36,712 nucleotides of DNA from a virus. The stretch spans positions 1 to 36,712 of the IMG/VR virus record IMGVR_UViG_3300033165_000009. The stretch is one strand, 5' to 3'. Each line of letters begins with the position of its first letter. Positions within the stretch are counted from its first letter, which is position 1. The translations under genes were made by a program, and so were the position numbers. Below are positions 3,712-24,981 of the stretch, one piece after another. The notes under the pieces are model-generated. The model saw only the letters and a program-made list of their open reading frames with translations, was not told the DNA's origin and made no database searches.

Positions 3712-4965
3712 ATGGGATTATTAGACAGAATCAACTACAAAAACTTTCTTTTAAAGAATGCAGAACCCAACGCAATTGAAGAAACCGGGATAGATACTGA
3801 CGACACCATTACCACTGACAAAGATTCTGTTGATCTAATCACAACCGTACCATTCAAAGTTAAACGAACAATTAAAAACTGCCGTTTCGCTGCAAACGAC
3901 CCAATAGTGAAGGGTATAATCAACGACACTATCACCAAGACAATATCCAACTTCATAATTGAAGGAGATAACCAGGACGCAGCAGATTATATTACTGATC
4001 GTTGTAAAAGCACGGACTGGGACATTAACCAAGTCATGCGTGACCTATTATGGGGGGGCCAAGTTGATGGGGAAGTATTCATGAATAAGATTATCATTGA
4101 AAACAAAACCCACCTCAGAATGTTGGCATTTGACGCTGAAAACTATCGAATCAAAAAGATTTACGATGAATACGGTAGGGTCACAGGTTTCAAACAACTC
4201 ACACAAAGAAACAAAGACACGAATAAAGGATGGCTGGCTAAAAAATTCGAGGAACTGGAGGAGAAACTGGAAGAATGGACAGTACCCTTCCAGCCAGGAG
4301 AAATCATCAATGCCAAGTATATGGAGTTAAAAGGTAAGGGCAGATCCATAGTGATGGACATCCTGGACCCAGTATACTACCGGAGAGTACTATCAGATCT
4401 GATGCCTAAAACTGTTTTCAAAAATTCCAATATTCTAATCGTGACCATGGGGAACAAAGATGCTCCTGGTAAACGTTTAACTAAACAGTCCCGGGAGGCA
4501 GTAGTAGAGGCCACCACGGATTATCATAAGAAGGGAGTTGTAGTTCTCCCTTTCGGGCTTGAAGCTGAAATGGTTGGCACAAGTAACCTACCAGATATTC
4601 CCTCATATAAGCAGGATTTTAAGAATGAAATCTTCGATGGACTTTCAACACCACATGCCCTTTTTGACACGGAGGGAAGTAACCGGGCCACAGCAGAGGT
4701 GTTGATGGACAGTGAAACCAGTGGAAGAGTTGTATTCCTAGAGTATAATCGGGAATGGTTGAAGAAATATATTGAAAATGAACTATTCGCCCCCGAACTA
4801 GAACTGGCAGGTAAGAAGGGAAAGGTTTGGATTAACTTCCACCCAGAAAAGAAGGATGAGAAAACAGCATACATGGATTCTGATGAAAACAGAGCCAAAC
4901 CCAAATCCAACAAAGAAGATGAAGATGAAGAAGAAGATGTGGAGGTTGATGCTGATGGTGACTGA
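3712..4965 (+). CDS. Portal protein
   Basis: About 417 aa directly after TerL, helical portal-like content, acidic C-terminal tail. Confidence 0.8.
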   Translation: MGLLDRINYKNFLLKNAEPNAIEETGIDTDDTITTDKDSVDLITTVPFKVKRTIKNCRFAANDPIVKGIINDTITKTISNFIIEGDNQDAADYITDRCKSTDWDINQVMRDLLWGGQVDGEVFMNKIIIENKTHLRMLAFDAENYRIKKIYDEYGRVTGFKQLTQRNKDTNKGWLAKKFEELEEKLEEWTVPFQPGEIINAKYMELKGKGRSIVMDILDPVYYRRVLSDLMPKTVFKNSNILIVTMGNKDAPGKRLTKQSREAVVEATTDYHKKGVVVLPFGLEAEMVGTSNLPDIPSYKQDFKNEIFDGLSTPHALFDTEGSNRATAEVLMDSETSGRVVFLEYNREWLKKYIENELFAPELELAGKKGKVWINFHPEKKDEKTAYMDSDENRAKPKSNKEDEDEEEDVEVDADGD

Positions 4966-9517: not shown

Positions 9518-9735
9518 AATTTAAATTTAATGGTAGAGATGGGATGAGGGACTTCAACCTAGTCATTGATGGGATTTTACCCATGGAAGAAACCCTCAAA
9601 AAGGGTCAGGAGATTGAAATACCAGATGATCATAAACTCGTCCCAAGACTAAGAGAAAATGGATTATGGGAAGAATTACCCGAACCCACAGAATCAACTA
9701 AGAAACCTAAATCTAAAACAAAAAGAGGTGAATGA
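9514..9735 (+). CDS. Small hypothetical virion-module protein
   Basis: 73 aa, ATGA overlaps on both sides. Confidence 0.6.
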   Translation: MKFKFNGRDGMRDFNLVIDGILPMEETLKKGQEIEIPDDHKLVPRLRENGLWEELPEPTESTKKPKSKTKRGE

Positions 9736-10859
9736 GTATGGGCGCACCACCAAACAGCCTTCACTACATGGGGTATGGTTTAAACCCTTATGAGGACGAC
9801 GTTCAAGTCCTTGGTAAAGTTTTACCAGTCATTTTTCCTAAAATGAAAACCTTCGAACCGGATAGTAAGATGGACCCAGAGGAGGATGAAGGACACACTG
9901 GGCAAGACACCATATTGTTAGGGGAAGACCGGAAAGAGGCCAGTTCCGCCCCCACAGTGGAGGATAAACTCAGATTAGGGGAAGGAATAGAGGATATACT
10001 ATTCCAACTTTTAGGGGCCAAAGATGAGGTTGTTCCGGCAGTTACGGGGGCGGCAGCTTCATATAAACATAAGTTTTACCGGGATGCATCAAACCCCCCA
10101 GTAGATTTACCCGTGGCTACGATAATAGAGGGGTTCAATTGGGGTGAAGCGAAACCAGAAGCATATATTAACCAGATGGTTGATTCTGTGGAGTTAGTAC
10201 TCAATGCTAACCAATCACCAACCTATAAGGCTAAGTTCATGGGGGACTTCCCCAAGTACAACCAATCTGAACCAACACTCGTATTCCCTGAAACTGAAAC
10301 CAGGTTCAAAGCTTACCAGACCTCAATTTATATAGGTCCAGTGGGCACGGCTGATGCAACACTCAAAACAGACACCTATAAGGTTGACTGTTATAATGAG
10401 GCTAGTTTGAACCTTAAAAACAACCTAGAACTCACTACCTGTGGAGGGACCACATTCGGAAGCCCAACCAAGAATAGGAAACCATTCTCAGGTGACACCA
10501 CCATCAAAATGGAGTACAATGAAAAGAACATGAACTTAGAAGCAGAATGGGCCACAGGAGCATCAGATGGGGTAGATCCAACTCCTGAGCCATTGTTCAA
10601 AAAGGTGATATTTAAAACAACTGGTAAGCTCATTGAATCAGTTGTAAACCCGGCCGCAACCGTCTATGCAGATATGGAAATAGTAATTCCAAAACTCTTA
10701 ATAGATAATGTAACCAGCCCTAGGAGTGGTAAAGACTATAAAAATATCACATTAACTGGGAAAATAGTTTCGAACGCATCCAGCCTGGTGAATCCTGTCG
10801 AAATAACCATGGTTACGCCGTTGGATGAATTGAATTATGGAACAATACCAACACCATAA
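9732..10859 (+). CDS. Major tail tube protein
   Basis: 375 aa, beta-rich, position upstream of chaperone and tape measure genes. Confidence 0.75.
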   Translation: MSMGAPPNSLHYMGYGLNPYEDDVQVLGKVLPVIFPKMKTFEPDSKMDPEEDEGHTGQDTILLGEDRKEASSAPTVEDKLRLGEGIEDILFQLLGAKDEVVPAVTGAAASYKHKFYRDASNPPVDLPVATIIEGFNWGEAKPEAYINQMVDSVELVLNANQSPTYKAKFMGDFPKYNQSEPTLVFPETETRFKAYQTSIYIGPVGTADATLKTDTYKVDCYNEASLNLKNNLELTTCGGTTFGSPTKNRKPFSGDTTIKMEYNEKNMNLEAEWATGASDGVDPTPEPLFKKVIFKTTGKLIESVVNPAATVYADMEIVIPKLLIDNVTSPRSGKDYKNITLTGKIVSNASSLVNPVEITMVTPLDELNYGTIPTP

Positions 10860-10878: not shown

Positions 10879-11551
10879 ATGAATCCAAGAGTATTTAAGG
10901 ACAAGATGGAAGAATTGATTGAAGCCTTTTAAGGAGAACAGCCTCGCTGTGGGCGTTCTATCCTTCACAGAGGCAATAGTCACTAACATAACCGCAACCA
11001 CTGGCAGTGATTTAACCATTGCAGGGGCAACCGGGAAGGATATTAAATTCACCCTAACAGATGCCAATGGGGCTAGGAAAGTAATTGTTTACGACAGTGG
11101 AGCAGTTGCAGTCTTAGATATTGACAGTAATGGTAAAGTTAAAGCTGCCGGAGGATTTGAGGGGGACCTTACTGGAGATGTTGCTGCCACCAGTGCATCG
11201 GACCTGACCATTGCCAATGCAGCTGCGGATAAGGACATAATTCTTAGTTTAGGTGATGCTGCTGCTGCTACTAAGATTTCAATAATTGACAGTGGTGAAG
11301 ATGAAGTGGCCAGTATCAACAGTAACGGTGAAATAGACGGTTCTGCAATGATAGCTCCACTCAAGTATGCTGCTGTTGAAACCAGTGGAGCCCCCACCAA
11401 TGCTGAATGTGTGTCTGCCTTCGGGGCGGCTGCAACAGTAGGGTCAGGATTTGTGGGAGTTCTTCAAGATAGTGGTGCTGAAGGAGTGTCCTATCTCTGT
11501 GTTTCCAACGGAACTAATTACGATGTGTTCACAGGGGCAGCTGCTGCATAA
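10879..11551 (+). CDS. Ala/Gly-rich fibre-like structural protein; reading requires a +1 shift at GCC TTT TAA (10924-10932)
   Basis: GGAGG RBS and ATG 10879 give MNPRVFKDKMEELIEAF*; the +1 frame continues KENSLAVG... to TAA 11551; two about 50-aa internal repeats (SDLTIA...KDI...DSG...I.SNG). Confidence 0.6.
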
Positions 11552-11612
11552 TTGTAGGGGCTAATAGTTCCCTACCAAAATATTTTATAATAAAACAATA
11601 AGGAGTATTACC

Positions 11613-12173
11613 ATGGCCAAAATGAGTAAAACTGAAATAGAGTTCTGTGGGAAAAAAAGACGGTTTAGGAGATGCTCTAACCGGGTTTTAAGAGATTCAA
11701 ACAAAGATGTTGAAGCTTTACAAAGAGAAGCAACAGAAAAACGAGACGAACTCGTTAAAAAAATAAGCGAAGCCCAGGAAAAACGCCAAGACGCTGTTCA
11801 ACTCTTAGGATTAGCATATAAAGATGACACCATACTTGAAAAGAACCAAAAAAAAGCCGATAAGCTAATCAAAGAAGCTAAAAAAATAGAATCAGAAGTT
11901 GAAGAACTATCCAACAAGATAGGGGAAGAATTAGCCACCTTTGATGAAAGGATGGCAGAGGCGTATGACAAGGTATGCGTTGCACTGCTTGAAATAGAAC
12001 CTGGGGAATTTCTTGAAAACTATGATAGCATTGACCTCATAATTGCAAAAAACCTAGGACTATTCTATGACCTTTACATGTCTGGCACTCCACAGGCTAA
12101 GATAGATGTGCGTTTAAGACAACTCATTGACGTGGAACATGATAACCAGATAGGCCAGTTTCGCCAGGAATAA
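11613..12173 (+). CDS. Tail assembly chaperone (gpG-like)
   Basis: 186 aa helical/coiled-coil protein between tail tube and tape measure genes; AAGGAG RBS. Confidence 0.7.
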   Translation: MAKMSKTEIEFCGKKRRFRRCSNRVLRDSNKDVEALQREATEKRDELVKKISEAQEKRQDAVQLLGLAYKDDTILEKNQKKADKLIKEAKKIESEVEELSNKIGEELATFDERMAEAYDKVCVALLEIEPGEFLENYDSIDLIIAKNLGLFYDLYMSGTPQAKIDVRLRQLIDVEHDNQIGQFRQE

Positions 12174-12492
12174 TAATCCAGAGAATGGTAATGAAGATTC
12201 TAATAGTAGAGTTCTCATCAGCGAAGTTCTGGAAAAAGTTCTTCTTCAACACTATTTCCTCCTGAAAATGCGTAAAGCCATTACCGAAACTGTTAAGGAA
12301 TTCTGGGACGATTTAGATACACATACTACGTACCAGTTCCTGGAATGGGTGTATGAAGTGATTGAGATTGAAGAAGACATGAGAAACAACCCTGACAAAT
12401 ATAAGAAAGGGACGAGTTCAATGGTTGAGGAGGATCCTGAAACTTTAGACCTTTACTATCAAATGAGAGGTAGGAGTCAAGAGAATGAGTAG
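12160..12492 (+). CDS. Tail assembly chaperone frameshift extension (gpT-like), +1 frame
   Basis: Frame of track ORF 12268-12492 is open from 12154, overlapping the end of the chaperone ORF; no RBS before ATG 12268; candidate slip site CAG TTT CGC at 12156-12164. Confidence 0.6.
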   Translation, partial: FARNNNPENGNEDSNSRVLISEVLEKVLLQHYFLLKMRKAITETVKEFWDDLDTHTTYQFLEWVYEVIEIEEDMRNNPDKYKKGTSSMVEEDPETLDLYYQMRGRSQENE

Positions 12493-12862
12493 TTACGTGT
12501 TGCTTGATGCTTCCGATATGGAAGAAAAGATGACAGAAATAGATCGTTTGATTGTCATTCATGATTCTATTGCAGCTGACCATATTTCGGAAGAAATTGA
12601 ACGTAAAACTTTTCCTTATGTTCCTTTAAAGTTTGGTTATCTTCAGGATGGGTTTCATAGAAAACAAGTGAGTCAATCCCATAATTTACAAATGGATATA
12701 TGGTATTCTGCTATTGGGAATAATTACTATGATTATGCTGCCATCCAACACGATGTCCAATTTGACCACCCAATCAAAGGAAGAGACCATTATATGGAGT
12801 TTGGTATTAGAGATACAGATATAGAAGGTTTATATGCTTACCATGTTTCACACGTCCTCTAA
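12485..12862 (+). CDS. HK97 gp10/Mu gpG-like neck or minor virion protein
   Basis: YVPLKFGYLQ (VPxDTGxL-like) and YAAIQH motifs, 125 aa. Confidence 0.6.
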   Translation: MSSYVLLDASDMEEKMTEIDRLIVIHDSIAADHISEEIERKTFPYVPLKFGYLQDGFHRKQVSQSHNLQMDIWYSAIGNNYYDYAAIQHDVQFDHPIKGRDHYMEFGIRDTDIEGLYAYHVSHVL

Positions 12863-12865
12863 TCT

Positions 12866-13033
12866 TTATTTTTCCCTAGCCTGTTCTAATTCAAACTTAC
12901 GGATTTCTTCCTTCTCCTGCTTTTTCACATACTGATTATATCCATAAATCCCTGGAATCATTCTTTGAGACCATGGCATGAAATCTTTGATGGTTGAATG
13001 GTACACGAATATTTTGAACCCTTCTTGTTCCAT
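12866..13033 (-). CDS. 55-aa antisense orphan (moron-like) inside the tail operon
   Basis: MEQEGFKIFVYHSTIKDFMPWSQRMIPGIYGYNQYVKKQEKEEIRKFELEQAREK; GGGGT RBS and minus-strand TTTATAAG box near 13076-13083. Confidence 0.55.
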   Translation of the reverse strand: MEQEGFKIFVYHSTIKDFMPWSQRMIPGIYGYNQYVKKQEKEEIRKFELEQAREK

Positions 13034-13129
13034 AAAATTACCCCACTATTTTGATTAATATTTTCACATTCTTTCTTATGTAATTTTCGCATTTCTCTTA
13101 TAAAAATTAATAAAAGCGAGGTCCCACCC

Positions 13130-16100
13130 ATGGCAGCAAACGGCGGAGTAGTCAAAGCCAAACTCATATTAGACTCATCAGAGTTTTCTTCCGAATGGAA
13201 GAAAAGAATAGGTGAATTAAATGCCCGTATAAAAGGGCCTGACTTCTCAGGAATAAAAAAAGAGTTAGATGACACTGCCCAGGGTGCTAAGAAAACCAAG
13301 GAAAATGTTGACCAAATTAACAATTCCAAGTTTGACAAGGCTACTAGTAATTTAGACGAACTCATCCGGAAAGTGAAAGGTCTCCAGTCAAGTGCAAAAC
13401 CTTTGGACATTGTAGTCAAACCTTCAAATCTTGATGAAACTATTCGCAAAATAAGGGAACTTGGCAATCAAAGTAAAAAGAGTGAAGAACAAGTTAAACA
13501 GATTAACAACTCCCGTTTTGATAAATTAGTCAGCACCTTGGATGGTGCTATTAATAAGATGAGGAGCACTGCAAGTTCCGGTATTACTAATGTTAAAAAT
13601 TCGATCAATTCTGGTTTACACTCCATCACCTTCACCTCCTTGCAAAATAAATTCTCAGCAACCATTAAATCAATGAAGAACACCGCTTCAGCAGGGGTTA
13701 GATCAATATCCAATGAATTTAGCAGTATGCAGGCAGGGTTAACTGACATTTTCACCACCGTAGCTGGAGGAGCTGGGTTAAGCACCCTATTTTCATATGG
13801 TCAAGGGATTGCCACTACCCAAGCAATGCTTGGGAATACTAAATCCCCAGAGGAAGCCAAGGACATCACTGATCAGTATTTGAAATATACTCAGGCAAGT
13901 TCAACCCCTGACAGGGATATTCAAAACCTGATGGTATATACAATGCAGGGCGCACCTAAAGGGCAAACCTTTAGGACGTTAGCAGCAATGGATGCGGCTG
14001 CTCATTCACCCAATCCGATTCAAAGGCAGGAATTGCTCAGGAACTTTGGACAATACCTGACTGGAGGGTACAGTGAAGCGTTGTTCCGTGGGGATTTAAC
14101 CCCTGAACAGGCTGAAATATTAAAATCAGCCCAAACACCCGAGGAACGTGTTGCGGCCATGGAAAAGGTGGCTAAAACTAAAGGGTCATCTGGGTTAAGC
14201 ACTACTTTTGAAGGGCCATTAGGGCCTTATAACAAGGCAATGGTGGTTACTGACACTCTTATTTTAGGACTGACTAAGAGTTTTGATAAATTTTTAAAAA
14301 CAGTTGAACCGTTATCGGATTGGTTCTTAGGATTAGATCAGGGAACTAAGGATTTAATTACCGATGGCGTGTTTTTATTAGGACTATTGGGAATGGCTGG
14401 AGGGGCAATTAGGATTTTCGTAGGAGTTATCAGGCCATTTGTAGGCATTTTTAAGAGCCTTGCGAGTGGGGCGGTGACGGTGGCTAAGAAACTTGGTGAG
14501 ATGATTCCCACGGATAAGATAGCAGAATCTTTAGGTAAGTTGAAAGATATTGCGGCTGACAAGTTATCCGGTTTCACTGGTAAGGTTTCGGAAGTGTTCA
14601 GTGGATTGAAAGATAAAATAAGCGGTCCTTTGCGTAGTTTTAAGGATGCGGTTGTTAGTAAGTTTGGGGAAATTAAAGATTGGATCCAAAGTAAATGGAA
14701 CCCAAAACCAACCAGCACAGGAACCACTGGGTTGGGAACTGTTGGAGGTTTGGCTTTAGGGGCCGGGGCAGTTTTAGCTTTATCTTATGCCACTGTTAAA
14801 ATAGCTCAAGCCTCCATCACAACAGAATCAATAACCAAAGGAAAGGAAACATTTGGGGAAAGCACTGCTACATTGATGGAGGAATTAAAAAATAAAGATT
14901 ATTTATCATTGTTTGGTCAGATTACTGGAGGATTATTCACTGGTGGGACTCCATTAGAAAAAGCTGCTGAAGTTGAAAAACAAAAAGCTTTAGAACAAAA
15001 GAAAAAACAAAACCTCCAAGATTGGGGGCCTTTCACTGGGATTGCAGAATTCTTTGGCCAGAATCCTTTAAAAAGCTCAGGTACTGTTCATGCTGCCGAT
15101 GGGAAGGGGGGGAAACCATCAATAATGGATGATATTCTCGGAGAGAAGGGATTACTCCGAGGAACACCATTAGCCGGGCTTAAATGGCCCAGTGCAAGCC
15201 AAATACTCAATAAATTAAAAGATGTATTACTTCCCAAGATTCCTAAATTCAACTGGAAACCTCCAAGTGTGAACCAAGTGTTGCAAGGGATCGGGGAGAA
15301 GATAAACCCGCTTAACTGGCATGTTCCTGGGGTTGGACAATTATTAGGTCAGACTTGGCAGAAGATTAAGGAGTTATTCTGGAATATACCCAGCATAGGT
15401 GACTTCCTGAATCAAACTTGGCAGAAAATCAAAGAATTATGGTGGCAAGTTCCTAGCATTGGAGATATTTTAAACATAATCACTAGTAAAATAACTGATT
15501 TTGTTTGGCCTATGGGACCAAGTAGGGCCATGGGTGTTGCCAGTAACATAGCAAACCGGGCAGGAACATTAATTTCCAATGCACAAGGACCAAGAGGACC
15601 AATCAATGATGCTATAATCAGTACAATGTCAGCCAAAAGCGGGGTGGGATCAGGATACATAAGCCAGGCATTAGCGCACCGGTTCAGTGGCTTAGCAGGA
15701 TTCACCCCCATAGCTAATGGGATAGCATCACACCTTGGATACACTTTCTACATGGGTGACCAGAAAAGCAACCAGGAAGTGTGGGATAGTGGTTCATGTA
15801 ACTGTTATGATGGGGCACAATTCCTCCAAAGTGAAGCTGGGCAACGTTTCGGTATAGGTGCGGGGATGCAGAACGGAGTATGGAATGGAACTTCAATCCC
15901 CCATACATGGAGTGTTATTGGAGGCCAACCCTTTGACATGGCCGCCATGCTACTAAGAGGGCAGTGGGCCCCACCTAATGGTCCTAAAGACATGACTGTT
16001 GCCCAATTTATGACAGACATCGGTCCGGGCCTGGAATATATGGCTTATGGGGGACACTTGAAGGACCCAATAGATGCTGTTTTTGATGGAGGGAACTGTT

Positions 16101-24108: not shown

Positions 24109-24981
24109 ATAACAACTAAAACAATAACCGAAGTGGCAAAGGCAAGTGTAGATGTCCGGAACTTCATACAAGGAAACAAATACCTACCAGAATTAATCAC
24201 AATTGGTGGCGTGCAGGTGAACCGGGCTTCGTTTCTCAGGATGGTATGTGCGAGTGTTGTTGAACTAACTAAGCCCAAACCACTTGATATACTCACTGAT
24301 AGTTACCCCAACCCCCTACAAATAAACGGTAATATCCAGGATGGGGCACAACTACAAAAACAGGACTACGTCCAATTAGCCAAGGAGATTAACAACTTCA
24401 TAAAGGGTAATGGTTATGCTCCAACACTTTACACCACTAAATATGGACAACTATCATTCTATGATGTTATATACACTTTTAGCCGTGTATTAGCATGGTA
24501 CCATGAAAACAAAGCACTACCGAACTATGTAACACTCTACAACCTATTCCAAACCAATAAAACACCATTTCACCAAGCCGTGGAAAAAGCCGTAGGCACC
24601 TATAACACCTTCACCGAGTATTATAACCGAATCAAAGCAAAAACATGGCAGGGATACTATAACGATATATATAACCAACAACAAGAGATTCAACGCTTAG
24701 CAAACAACCAACCCCTCAACTGCACCGACCACAGCCAGTTAGGGAAAGCAGTGGCCGAAGACATGGACTACGAAGCCCTTTATTGCCGTGTAACCTGCAA
24801 ATCTGGAGGGCATATCATTTTAAAAGTCCGTGGTAAAGAATTGGGGAGTAACTGGGTTAATGTGGATTTAGCAGCGGCTGCAAGTAGTGATTACAGTATT
24901 GGGAGTTACTGGTGCAGTAGTTATGCTAAGCCGGTGGTTATCGACGAGGCGTGGATAAATTCAGACGACGGCAGGACGTGA
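24109..24981 (+). CDS. peiW: Pseudomurein endoisopeptidase (endolysin), PeiW/PeiP family C71; probable ATA start
   Basis: N-terminal pseudomurein-binding repeats (A..V.NFI..N..LP; AKEINNFIKGNGYAP; RVLAWYHENKALPNYV); catalytic YYND...NCTD...GH...VD triad pattern; GGAGGA RBS 8 nt before ATA 24109 (track start GTG 24133). Confidence 0.9.
   Translation: MTTKTITEVAKASVDVRNFIQGNKYLPELITIGGVQVNRASFLRMVCASVVELTKPKPLDILTDSYPNPLQINGNIQDGAQLQKQDYVQLAKEINNFIKGNGYAPTLYTTKYGQLSFYDVIYTFSRVLAWYHENKALPNYVTLYNLFQTNKTPFHQAVEKAVGTYNTFTEYYNRIKAKTWQGYYNDIYNQQQEIQRLANNQPLNCTDHSQLGKAVAEDMDYEALYCRVTCKSGGHIILKVRGKELGSNWVNVDLAAAASSDYSIGSYWCSSYAKPVVIDEAWINSDDGRT

Follow-up and report, generated by a model that had tools for sequence, protein, structure and literature searches.

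How is the second half of a tail gene pair expressed if its reading frame opens within the last codons of the first gene and offers no initiation codon there? This question is raised by a locus in the IMG/VR virus record IMGVR_UViG_3300033165_000009, a metagenome-derived, linear sequence of 36,712 bases that is rated 40% complete and was analyzed over its full length (hereafter the window). An open reading frame (ORF) for a G-type tail assembly chaperone is followed in the +1 frame by a conserved domain, T, that would represent the C-terminal extension of G (coordinates of all features are given in Table 1). The comparative sequence data presented in the following argue for a +1 slip of the ribosome at UUU_C close to the G stop codon, by which a fused GT protein of 292 amino acids (aa) would be made; the probability of this reading is put at roughly 0.8.

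The frame anatomy of the locus is directly visible in the DNA. The G ORF ends with ...ATA GGC CAG TTT CGC CAG GAA TAA; its 0 frame is closed by the TAA at 12171, whereas the +1 frame, closed upstream by a TAG at 12151, stays open between 12154 and the TAG at 12490-12492 (translation ASFARNNNPENGNEDSNSRVLISEVLEKVLLQHYFLLKMRKAITE...). Both frames share 20 nucleotides (nt), the sole stretch in which a shift can join G to T. The first ATG, GTG or TTG of the +1 frame is the ATG at 12268, which is positioned inside the first conserved helix of T and has no Shine-Dalgarno (SD) match in the 21 nt before it (caacactatttcctcctgaaa); in contrast, G and most of the other genes with an ATG start that are listed between 8186 and 23796 possess an SD match of at least 5 nt. 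In the -1 frame, which does not encode T, a stop is reached at 12263. Neither an XXXYYYZ heptamer nor a run of four or more identical bases was found in the last 40 codons of G, and there is no heptamer within positions 12054-12173. Standard decoding would thus yield the 186-aa G protein and the +1 shift the 292-aa product, with the predicted junction ...IGQF-ARNNNPENG (the hyphen marks the change of frame). The end of the G ORF, the extent of the open +1 frame, the ATG at 12268 without a ribosome-binding site (RBS), the missing heptamer, the -1 stop and two products of 186 and about 292 aa had all been described in a first-pass annotation of this DNA, and these observations are confirmed. In the approximately 10,000 codons of the window, TTT_CGN occurs in frame only once, namely at the chaperone site, versus 3.5-4.1 expected occurrences. 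As a minor feature of the same region, the -1 frame contains an ATG-started ORF of 26 codons (MVMKILIVEFSSAKFWKKFFFNTISS, then stop; 12185-12265) that overlaps the linker and the first helix of T; no sign of conservation was seen, and its presence is likely to be fortuitous.

Searches with G, T and their alignments retrieved 18 related loci from IMG/VR or JGI contigs (19 loci including the window), in each of which the frame of T relative to G was assigned by hidden Markov model (HMM) search. T is located in the +1 frame in 13 of the 19 loci (the window and 12 others), which comprise eight distinct lineages with G identities down to approximately 30%. The overlaps of the +1 loci are 20-50 nt long (20-23 nt in the window, L003, L056, L057 and L061), and the only element common to all of them is an in-frame TTT followed by C: TTT_CGC is present in the window and L001, in L004 and in L003, TTT_CGA in L002 and L061, TTT_CAA in L056 and the L065 group, and TTT_CAG in L057. 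If the six remaining loci are included, TTT_C is found in the overlap of 19/19 loci, in 12 of them with CGN as the next codon; the first-pass annotation, which had named the conservation of TTTCG and of both frames among homologues as the feature to be looked for, is supported with respect to TTT_C and, in the 13 loci, to the +1 frame. Because TTT_C recurs within such a short overlap in every locus, and because the TTT_CGN of the window is its sole one, the pattern goes beyond chance. In L002, two candidate slip sites are arranged in tandem (CGG TTT CAA TTT CGA, 4529-4540), both inside its 47-nt overlap.

The conservation of the pivot is equally apparent at the protein level. Phe183 forms one of ten invariant columns in an alignment of 53 G sequences, and a Phe is present within the last six residues of 120 out of 121 G homologues, where it is followed by Arg (90 cases), Gln (25) or Ser (5). 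Correspondingly, each of the ten T-frame sequences extending to the junction has a Phe in the same alignment column, which heads an unconserved acidic linker. The tetranucleotide TTTC thus encodes Phe in both frames, and this residue is conserved: just what a P-site slip from UUU to UUC predicts.

Fused forms are absent among the approximately 140 G or T homologues: the 127 G hits have lengths of 175-212 aa throughout (in a search covering 96-331 aa), and the 12 T representatives have lengths of 76-120 aa (1.8 billion proteins, no length limit). An RBS-led second gene was likewise not found, and the same frame break recurs in independent assemblies; the outcomes that the first-pass annotation had named as refuting the slip (a fused ORF, an independent RBS-led gene or an indel) were not encountered. 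The T motif FWxMDTY, used as a DNA pattern in viral contigs, matched 51 stretches, none of which was a true T homologue by HMM; profile scans of genome contigs with the G alignment and with protein P0015 returned nothing, despite a T homologue that is annotated in a Methanobacteriales metagenome-assembled genome (MAG).

The +1 frame shows coding constraint even upstream of any start codon. In the stretch before ATG 12268, differences between the window and L004 are distributed over the +1-codon positions 1/2/3 as 13/7/21, and those between L056 and L057 as 7/8/19 (upstream of the position of the window's ATG); the same pattern is found downstream (23/9/38 and 28/19/53, respectively). The excess at position 3 upstream of ATG 12268 thus argues that this stretch is translated in the +1 frame, and T is under purifying selection.

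According to the proposed mechanism, most ribosomes would read G to its TAA and release the 186-aa protein. In a minority of cases, the peptidyl-tRNA-Phe (anticodon GAA) would slip while it is wobble-paired with UUU (12159-12161) in the P site and CGC, the least used Arg codon of the virus, awaits decoding in the A site: by re-pairing one base forward, the tRNA would exchange the G:U wobble on UUU for full Watson-Crick pairing with UUC (12160-12162), and GCC (12163-12165) would be the next codon read. The slip is assigned to TTT_C because none of the other codons in the 20-nt overlap is able to re-pair at +1. If the pair works as in lambda, the tape measure protein would be coated by the G part and the tail tube protein recruited by the T domain, and neither product would be present in the virion. 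Inferred parts of this explanation are the slip as such and how efficient it is, what the A-site codon contributes, and the functions as chaperones.

The homologous site of six rumen-type loci (L059, L060, L062, L063, L064 and L066, at approximately 2050-2065 in each) differs in direction. G ends there with GAT TCT TTT CGN, directly followed by the stop codon, and T is located in the -1 frame, which reads ...RFFSLDSD... (expected junction DSF-SLDSD or DSF-SLNSE). The -1 frame opens 3-7 codons (9-21 nt) before the TTT, the overlaps measure 16-28 nt, and five of the six lack a start codon ahead of the conserved helix. Four consecutive U (U_UUU), on which tRNA-Phe is able to re-pair at -1, are present in all six -1 loci versus one of the 13 +1 loci; the site U_UCU_UUU_CGN is likewise not a strict heptamer. 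In the G-protein tree, the -1 loci group together as a subclade within the +1 lineages, and the direction has therefore changed at least once. A single codon separates Phe and stop in 80 of 120 G tails and, in the loci with DNA, is confined to the -1 clade; the latter may thus be the best-sampled part of the family. In the first-pass annotation the site had been contrasted with the usual -1 shift: this holds true for the window virus, but its sister subclade would use a -1 shift at the homologous U_UUU_CGN. Judged from these alignments, the conserved element is the P-site Phe codon UUU, mostly with CGN after it, and the direction would depend on the flanking bases and on the frame of T.

A farther-reading interpretation, to which we give slightly less than even odds, is that the Phe UUU near the G end acts as a bidirectional P-site slip point, that T has moved at least once between the +1 (UUU_C) and the -1 (U_UUU) frame without loss of expression, and that UUU_C would be intrinsically shift-prone on these archaeal ribosomes. 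If true, this shift-proneness would explain a genome-wide avoidance of TTT before C-starting codons, and the family, with its naturally occurring, matched sites for +1 and -1 shifts, would lend itself to a first experimental investigation of methanogen frameshifting.

Codon usage in the window agrees with a hesitating A site: CGC is the rarest Arg codon (1.6 per 1000; 15-18 of approximately 400 Arg codons), and the +1-frame codon GCC reaches 13 per 1000. For the five loci with CGN, the frequency of the A-site codon (CGC or CGA) is 0.7-2.7 per 1000, with the +1-frame codon being 7-50 times commoner. Codon pairs were counted in five complete or partial virus records (the window and G001-G004; the window and G001 are close relatives). 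In-frame TTT_CGN was observed 12 times, including five chaperone sites, versus 22.2 expected, and TTC_CGN 30 times versus 18.6; for C-starting codons in general, the counts were 127 versus 204 for TTT_Cnn and 241 versus 170 for TTC_Cnn. TTT is thus reduced to 0.62 of expectation before C-starting codons and TTC raised to 1.42, with a ratio of 0.88 for the other NNT_Cnn pairs. This result fits selection against UUU_C inside genes and hints at a cost of the motif elsewhere in these genomes; a general codon-pair bias may also be the cause of the TTT_Cnn deficit. The pairs CTT_AGR (0.38) and TAT_AGR (0.46) were depleted as well, which may reflect avoidance of TpA at codon junctions.

Several observations weigh against the +1 slip as outlined above, or against parts of it. 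No conserved RNA structure downstream of the site was detected by RNAalifold (single-sequence folds placed hairpins at varying positions, with z-scores of -0.7 to -3.3), and no conserved SD-like element is present upstream of it. The E-site codon of the window is CAG and not the UCC of the influenza A PA-X site (relatives have UCU in L003 and the -1 clade, and UCA in L061 and L065). Archaea are expected to read CGC and CGU, the latter of which is common here, with one tRNA-Arg(GCG), which speaks against a slow CGC. Furthermore, the TTT of L056, L057 and the L065 group is followed by the common codons CAA or CAG (14-19 per 1000 in L056 and L057), and a slow codon is therefore not universal: the slow CGC that had been invoked in the first-pass annotation is in line with the codon usage of the window, but it does not extend to these relatives, and a bare UUU_Y may be sufficient for the low-level shifting that GT needs. 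As regards protein function, Pfam and PHROG searches with G and T returned no family above noise (weak single matches in one of 53 members: Phage_TAC_19, E 0.003; phrog_3792, E 0.005), and a PDB profile search gave coiled coils only. The AlphaFold model of G (confidence score pLDDT 86) consists of an N-terminal beta-hairpin, a long helical hairpin and a C-terminal helical bundle; with this model, Foldseek found no match in PDB and BFVD at E <= 0.001, only coiled-coil look-alikes. In consequence, the designation as chaperone is based on synteny and architecture. Finally, an ATG, GTG or TTG is present in the T frame within the overlap of L004, L002, L056, L057 and the L065 group.

These start codons would suit T as a separate small protein that is initiated at ATG 12268 (74 aa), at a non-canonical start codon or by re-initiation after the G stop. 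Indeed, gene callers annotate the T homologues as ORFs of their own (76-120 aa), and the fused protein is nowhere on record. Such an origin of T is nevertheless regarded as unlikely: apart from lacking the SD sequence that most neighboring ATG-started structural genes have, an initiation at ATG 12268 inside the first helix would leave 36 codons untranslated that evolve as coding sequence. In the window, L001 and L003, the part of the T frame that precedes the conserved first helix (SEVLE..LLQHYFLL) is free of ATG, GTG and TTG, and the same lack was stated above for five of the six -1 loci. Where T-frame starts are present (L004, L002, L056, L057 and L065), their positions differ and they are without a well-spaced SD sequence; the TTT_C pivot, in contrast, is conserved in both frames. 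Independent initiation is still conceivable in L004, L002 and L056.

A junction of G and T by some other event within the 20-nt overlap, i.e. a -2 shift, out-of-frame binding in the A site (Ty3-like), a short hop or transcriptional slippage, is considered improbable. It is true that +1 and -2 shifts reach the same frame and are indistinguishable from sequence, and that no stimulatory element was found that would fix the mechanism. However, a -2 shift was rejected since no codon in the overlap offers re-pairing at -2, and polymerase slippage would lack a homopolymer of at least four bases; TTT_C, in contrast, is the sole element common to all overlaps and offers perfect +1 re-pairing of tRNA-Phe, and in the -1 subclade the same Phe codon is part of four consecutive U, as expected for P-site slippage. 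Two further candidates were discarded: a shifty stop of the release factor 2 (RF2/prfB) type, since three sense codons (CGC CAG GAA) separate TTT and TAA in the window (a stop is adjacent to TTT in 0/13 +1 loci), and canonical -1 tandem slippage (X_XXY_YYZ), for which the window has neither a heptamer nor a -1 frame encoding T. It is very improbable that the frame break arose from an indel in the assembly of one fused gene, or that T has decayed and is no longer expressed, because the metagenomic origin and 40% completeness of the record, which might suggest it, are outweighed by the identical break and frame relation in independent assemblies from different samples, the common end point of all 127 G homologues and the purifying selection on T.

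With regard to the function of the pair, G and T very probably represent a tail assembly chaperone of the lambda type, encoded by a tailed, siphovirus-like virus that infects a pseudomurein-walled methanogen (Methanobacteriales), as indicated by gene content and order. The pair is located downstream of the tail tube gene (PF18906) and upstream of the tape measure gene (PHROG 1272), an order that is kept in L001-L004, L056 and L057; in the same six loci, a tail tube homologue of 367-375 aa is conserved upstream of G, and the tape measure homologues of the relatives have 1036-1101 aa. The reading of the locus as a G/GT pair with a +1 slip at UUU_CGC, as put forward in the first-pass annotation, is thus supported by synteny, the frame relation, TTT_C, the coding substitution pattern and the lack of fused forms.

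Table 1. Positions of the chaperone locus and of adjacent tail genes in the window.
Feature	Position	Strand	Basis or remark
Shine-Dalgarno sequence AGGAG, 7 nt before the G start codon	11601..11605	+	
G-type tail assembly chaperone ORF, 186 aa, product of standard decoding	11613..12173	+	127 homologues of 175-212 aa
Overlap of 0 and +1 frames, 20 nt (GCCAGTTTCGCCAGGAATAA)	12154..12173	+	
Proposed +1 shift site UUU_CGC	12159..12164	+	
Asn/Glu/Asp-rich linker of the +1-frame extension, poorly conserved (ARNNNPENGNEDSNSR)	12163..12210	+	alignments
T domain, conserved, +1 frame (VLISEVLEKVLLQHYFLL...FW..DT.T...EDPETLDLY), stop TAG 12490-12492	12211..12492	+	
Tail tube protein gene	9732..10859	+	Pfam Phage_tube_2 PF18906, E 4.6e-6, 26.9 bits versus 27-bit cut-off
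Conserved 125-aa gene between T and tape measure	12485..12862	+	GAGGT/GGAG upstream
Tape measure protein gene, 1101 aa	13130..16435	+	PHROG 1272 and 4070, tail length tape measure

The slot between the tail tube gene and that of the tape measure also holds two more conserved genes (10919-11551 and 12485-12862). The ATG of the latter overlaps the T stop codon (AATGAGTAG); homologues of it with 126-139 aa are found at the corresponding position in L004, L002, L003, L056 and L057, and its product had neither a Pfam nor a PHROG match. In lambda, no gene is located between T and H. A pseudomurein endoisopeptidase domain (PF12386, Peptidase_C71, PeiW/PeiP-type; E 3.6e-14) is encoded at 24574-24918; the protein is the lysis enzyme and serves as a marker for a host from the Methanobacteriales. 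Together with the T homologue in the Methanobacteriales MAG, it identifies the host as a pseudomurein-walled methanogen, which backs the archaeal, methanogenic host assumed in the initial annotation. Since a sheath gene was not seen, we regard the virus as a probable siphovirus. The window contains no tRNA genes, and a blastn search of positions 10900-13200 against the GenBank phage collection gave no match.

The closest known parallel is provided by the HF1 group of haloarchaeal myoviruses (HF1, HF2, Serpecor1 and Hardycor2), in which two coding sequences (CDS) between the tube and tape measure genes need a +1 shift and a conserved TTT-CGC is located near the stop codon (PMC7230728); Dyall-Smith et al. 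2020 (Genes 11:405; PMC7230728) tied this motif to the PA-X and amalgavirus motif and called experiments necessary. The chaperone of HSTV-2 was listed as very likely +1 (Atkins et al. 2016, PMC5009743). These viruses and the one analyzed here share a second CDS in the +1 frame, the lack of a conventional heptamer, TTT-CGC a few codons before the stop and a shift that is predicted only. In contrast to the myoviruses of halophiles, however, the present virus probably is a siphovirus with a pseudomurein-walled methanogen as host, the TTT codon is used at 18.6 per 1000 versus 3.1 per 1000 in Halorubrum (PMC7230728), and its relatives also use TTT_CAR and, in one subclade, the -1 direction; the comparison covers architecture and motif.

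Among experimentally proven sites, UCC_UUU_CGU of influenza A PA-X is a +1 site (Jagger 2012, Firth 2012, as reviewed in PMC5009743), in agreement with the comparison to UUU-CGN made in the first-pass annotation. The UUU_CGN sites of PA-X and the amalgaviruses resemble the present one in the P-site UUU, the rare CGN next to it, the re-pairing of tRNA-Phe on UUC, the lack of an obvious RNA structure and a presumably low efficiency. PA-X differs in that it is made by eukaryotic ribosomes from an RNA virus, that its product is a host shut-off nuclease and not an assembly chaperone, and that the E-site UCC contributes to efficiency, a position taken here by CAG (UCU or UCA in the rumen clade). The gpG/gpGT pair of lambda, which is produced by a -1 shift on the heptamer G_GGA_AAG (Levin 1993; Xu, Hendrix, Duda 2004, as cited in PMC5009743), agrees in gene position, in a short and a C-terminally extended product from one start, in a shift within the last few G codons and in a T without an independent start; it is distinguished from the present system by the shift type (+1 on UUU_C here) and by the larger G (186 aa) with its long helical hairpin. 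UUU_Ynn is +1-prone in bacteria and is the likely site of Yersinia YopN-TyeA (PMC5009743): a bare UUU plus pyrimidine without an adjacent stop is enough for low-level +1 shifting, which fits the relatives with TTT_CAA and TTT_CAG, although this was shown in bacteria, whereas archaeal ribosomes and a wyosine-modified archaeal tRNA-Phe would be involved here.

Only one programmed frameshift has been proven in Archaea, a -1 event in fucA1 of Saccharolobus (De Lise et al. 2021, PMC8211752), and no +1 event has been demonstrated so far. A report of such a chaperone frameshift in methanogen viruses was not found in the literature; the only shift mentioned in the paper on MSTV1 is a -1 event in the capsid gene (PMC11375127). 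Since a +1 chaperone site at TTT-CGC has already been predicted for haloviruses, we rate the present virus as a further member of a known, still unproven kind. In contrast, we did not find a description of a -1/+1 switch on one Phe codon or of the avoidance of TTT_C. The site would be a compact one for testing, with four to six nucleotides in a 20-nt window and no RNA structure required, and many natural variants are on offer (UUU_CGC, CGA, CAA and CAG, plus the -1 sister clade). The finding also matters for annotation: in the related records examined, the T extension was either missed or called as an orphan ORF that lacks a start and is of arbitrary length.

A last observation concerns the region between the tail tube gene and G. 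The SD-led ATG at 10879 starts an ORF of 17 codons ending with GCC TTT TAA (MNPRVFKDKMEELIEAF, then stop; 10879-10951), after which the +1 frame stays open for approximately 206 codons (KENSLAVG...). The homologues in L001 (3505-3936) and L004 (3468-3920) have the same N-terminus; they are single ORFs of 143-150 aa with another C-terminal part. The stretch 10879-10951 may represent either a second tRNA-Phe +1 site (UUU_UAA, with four U) or a recombination scar.

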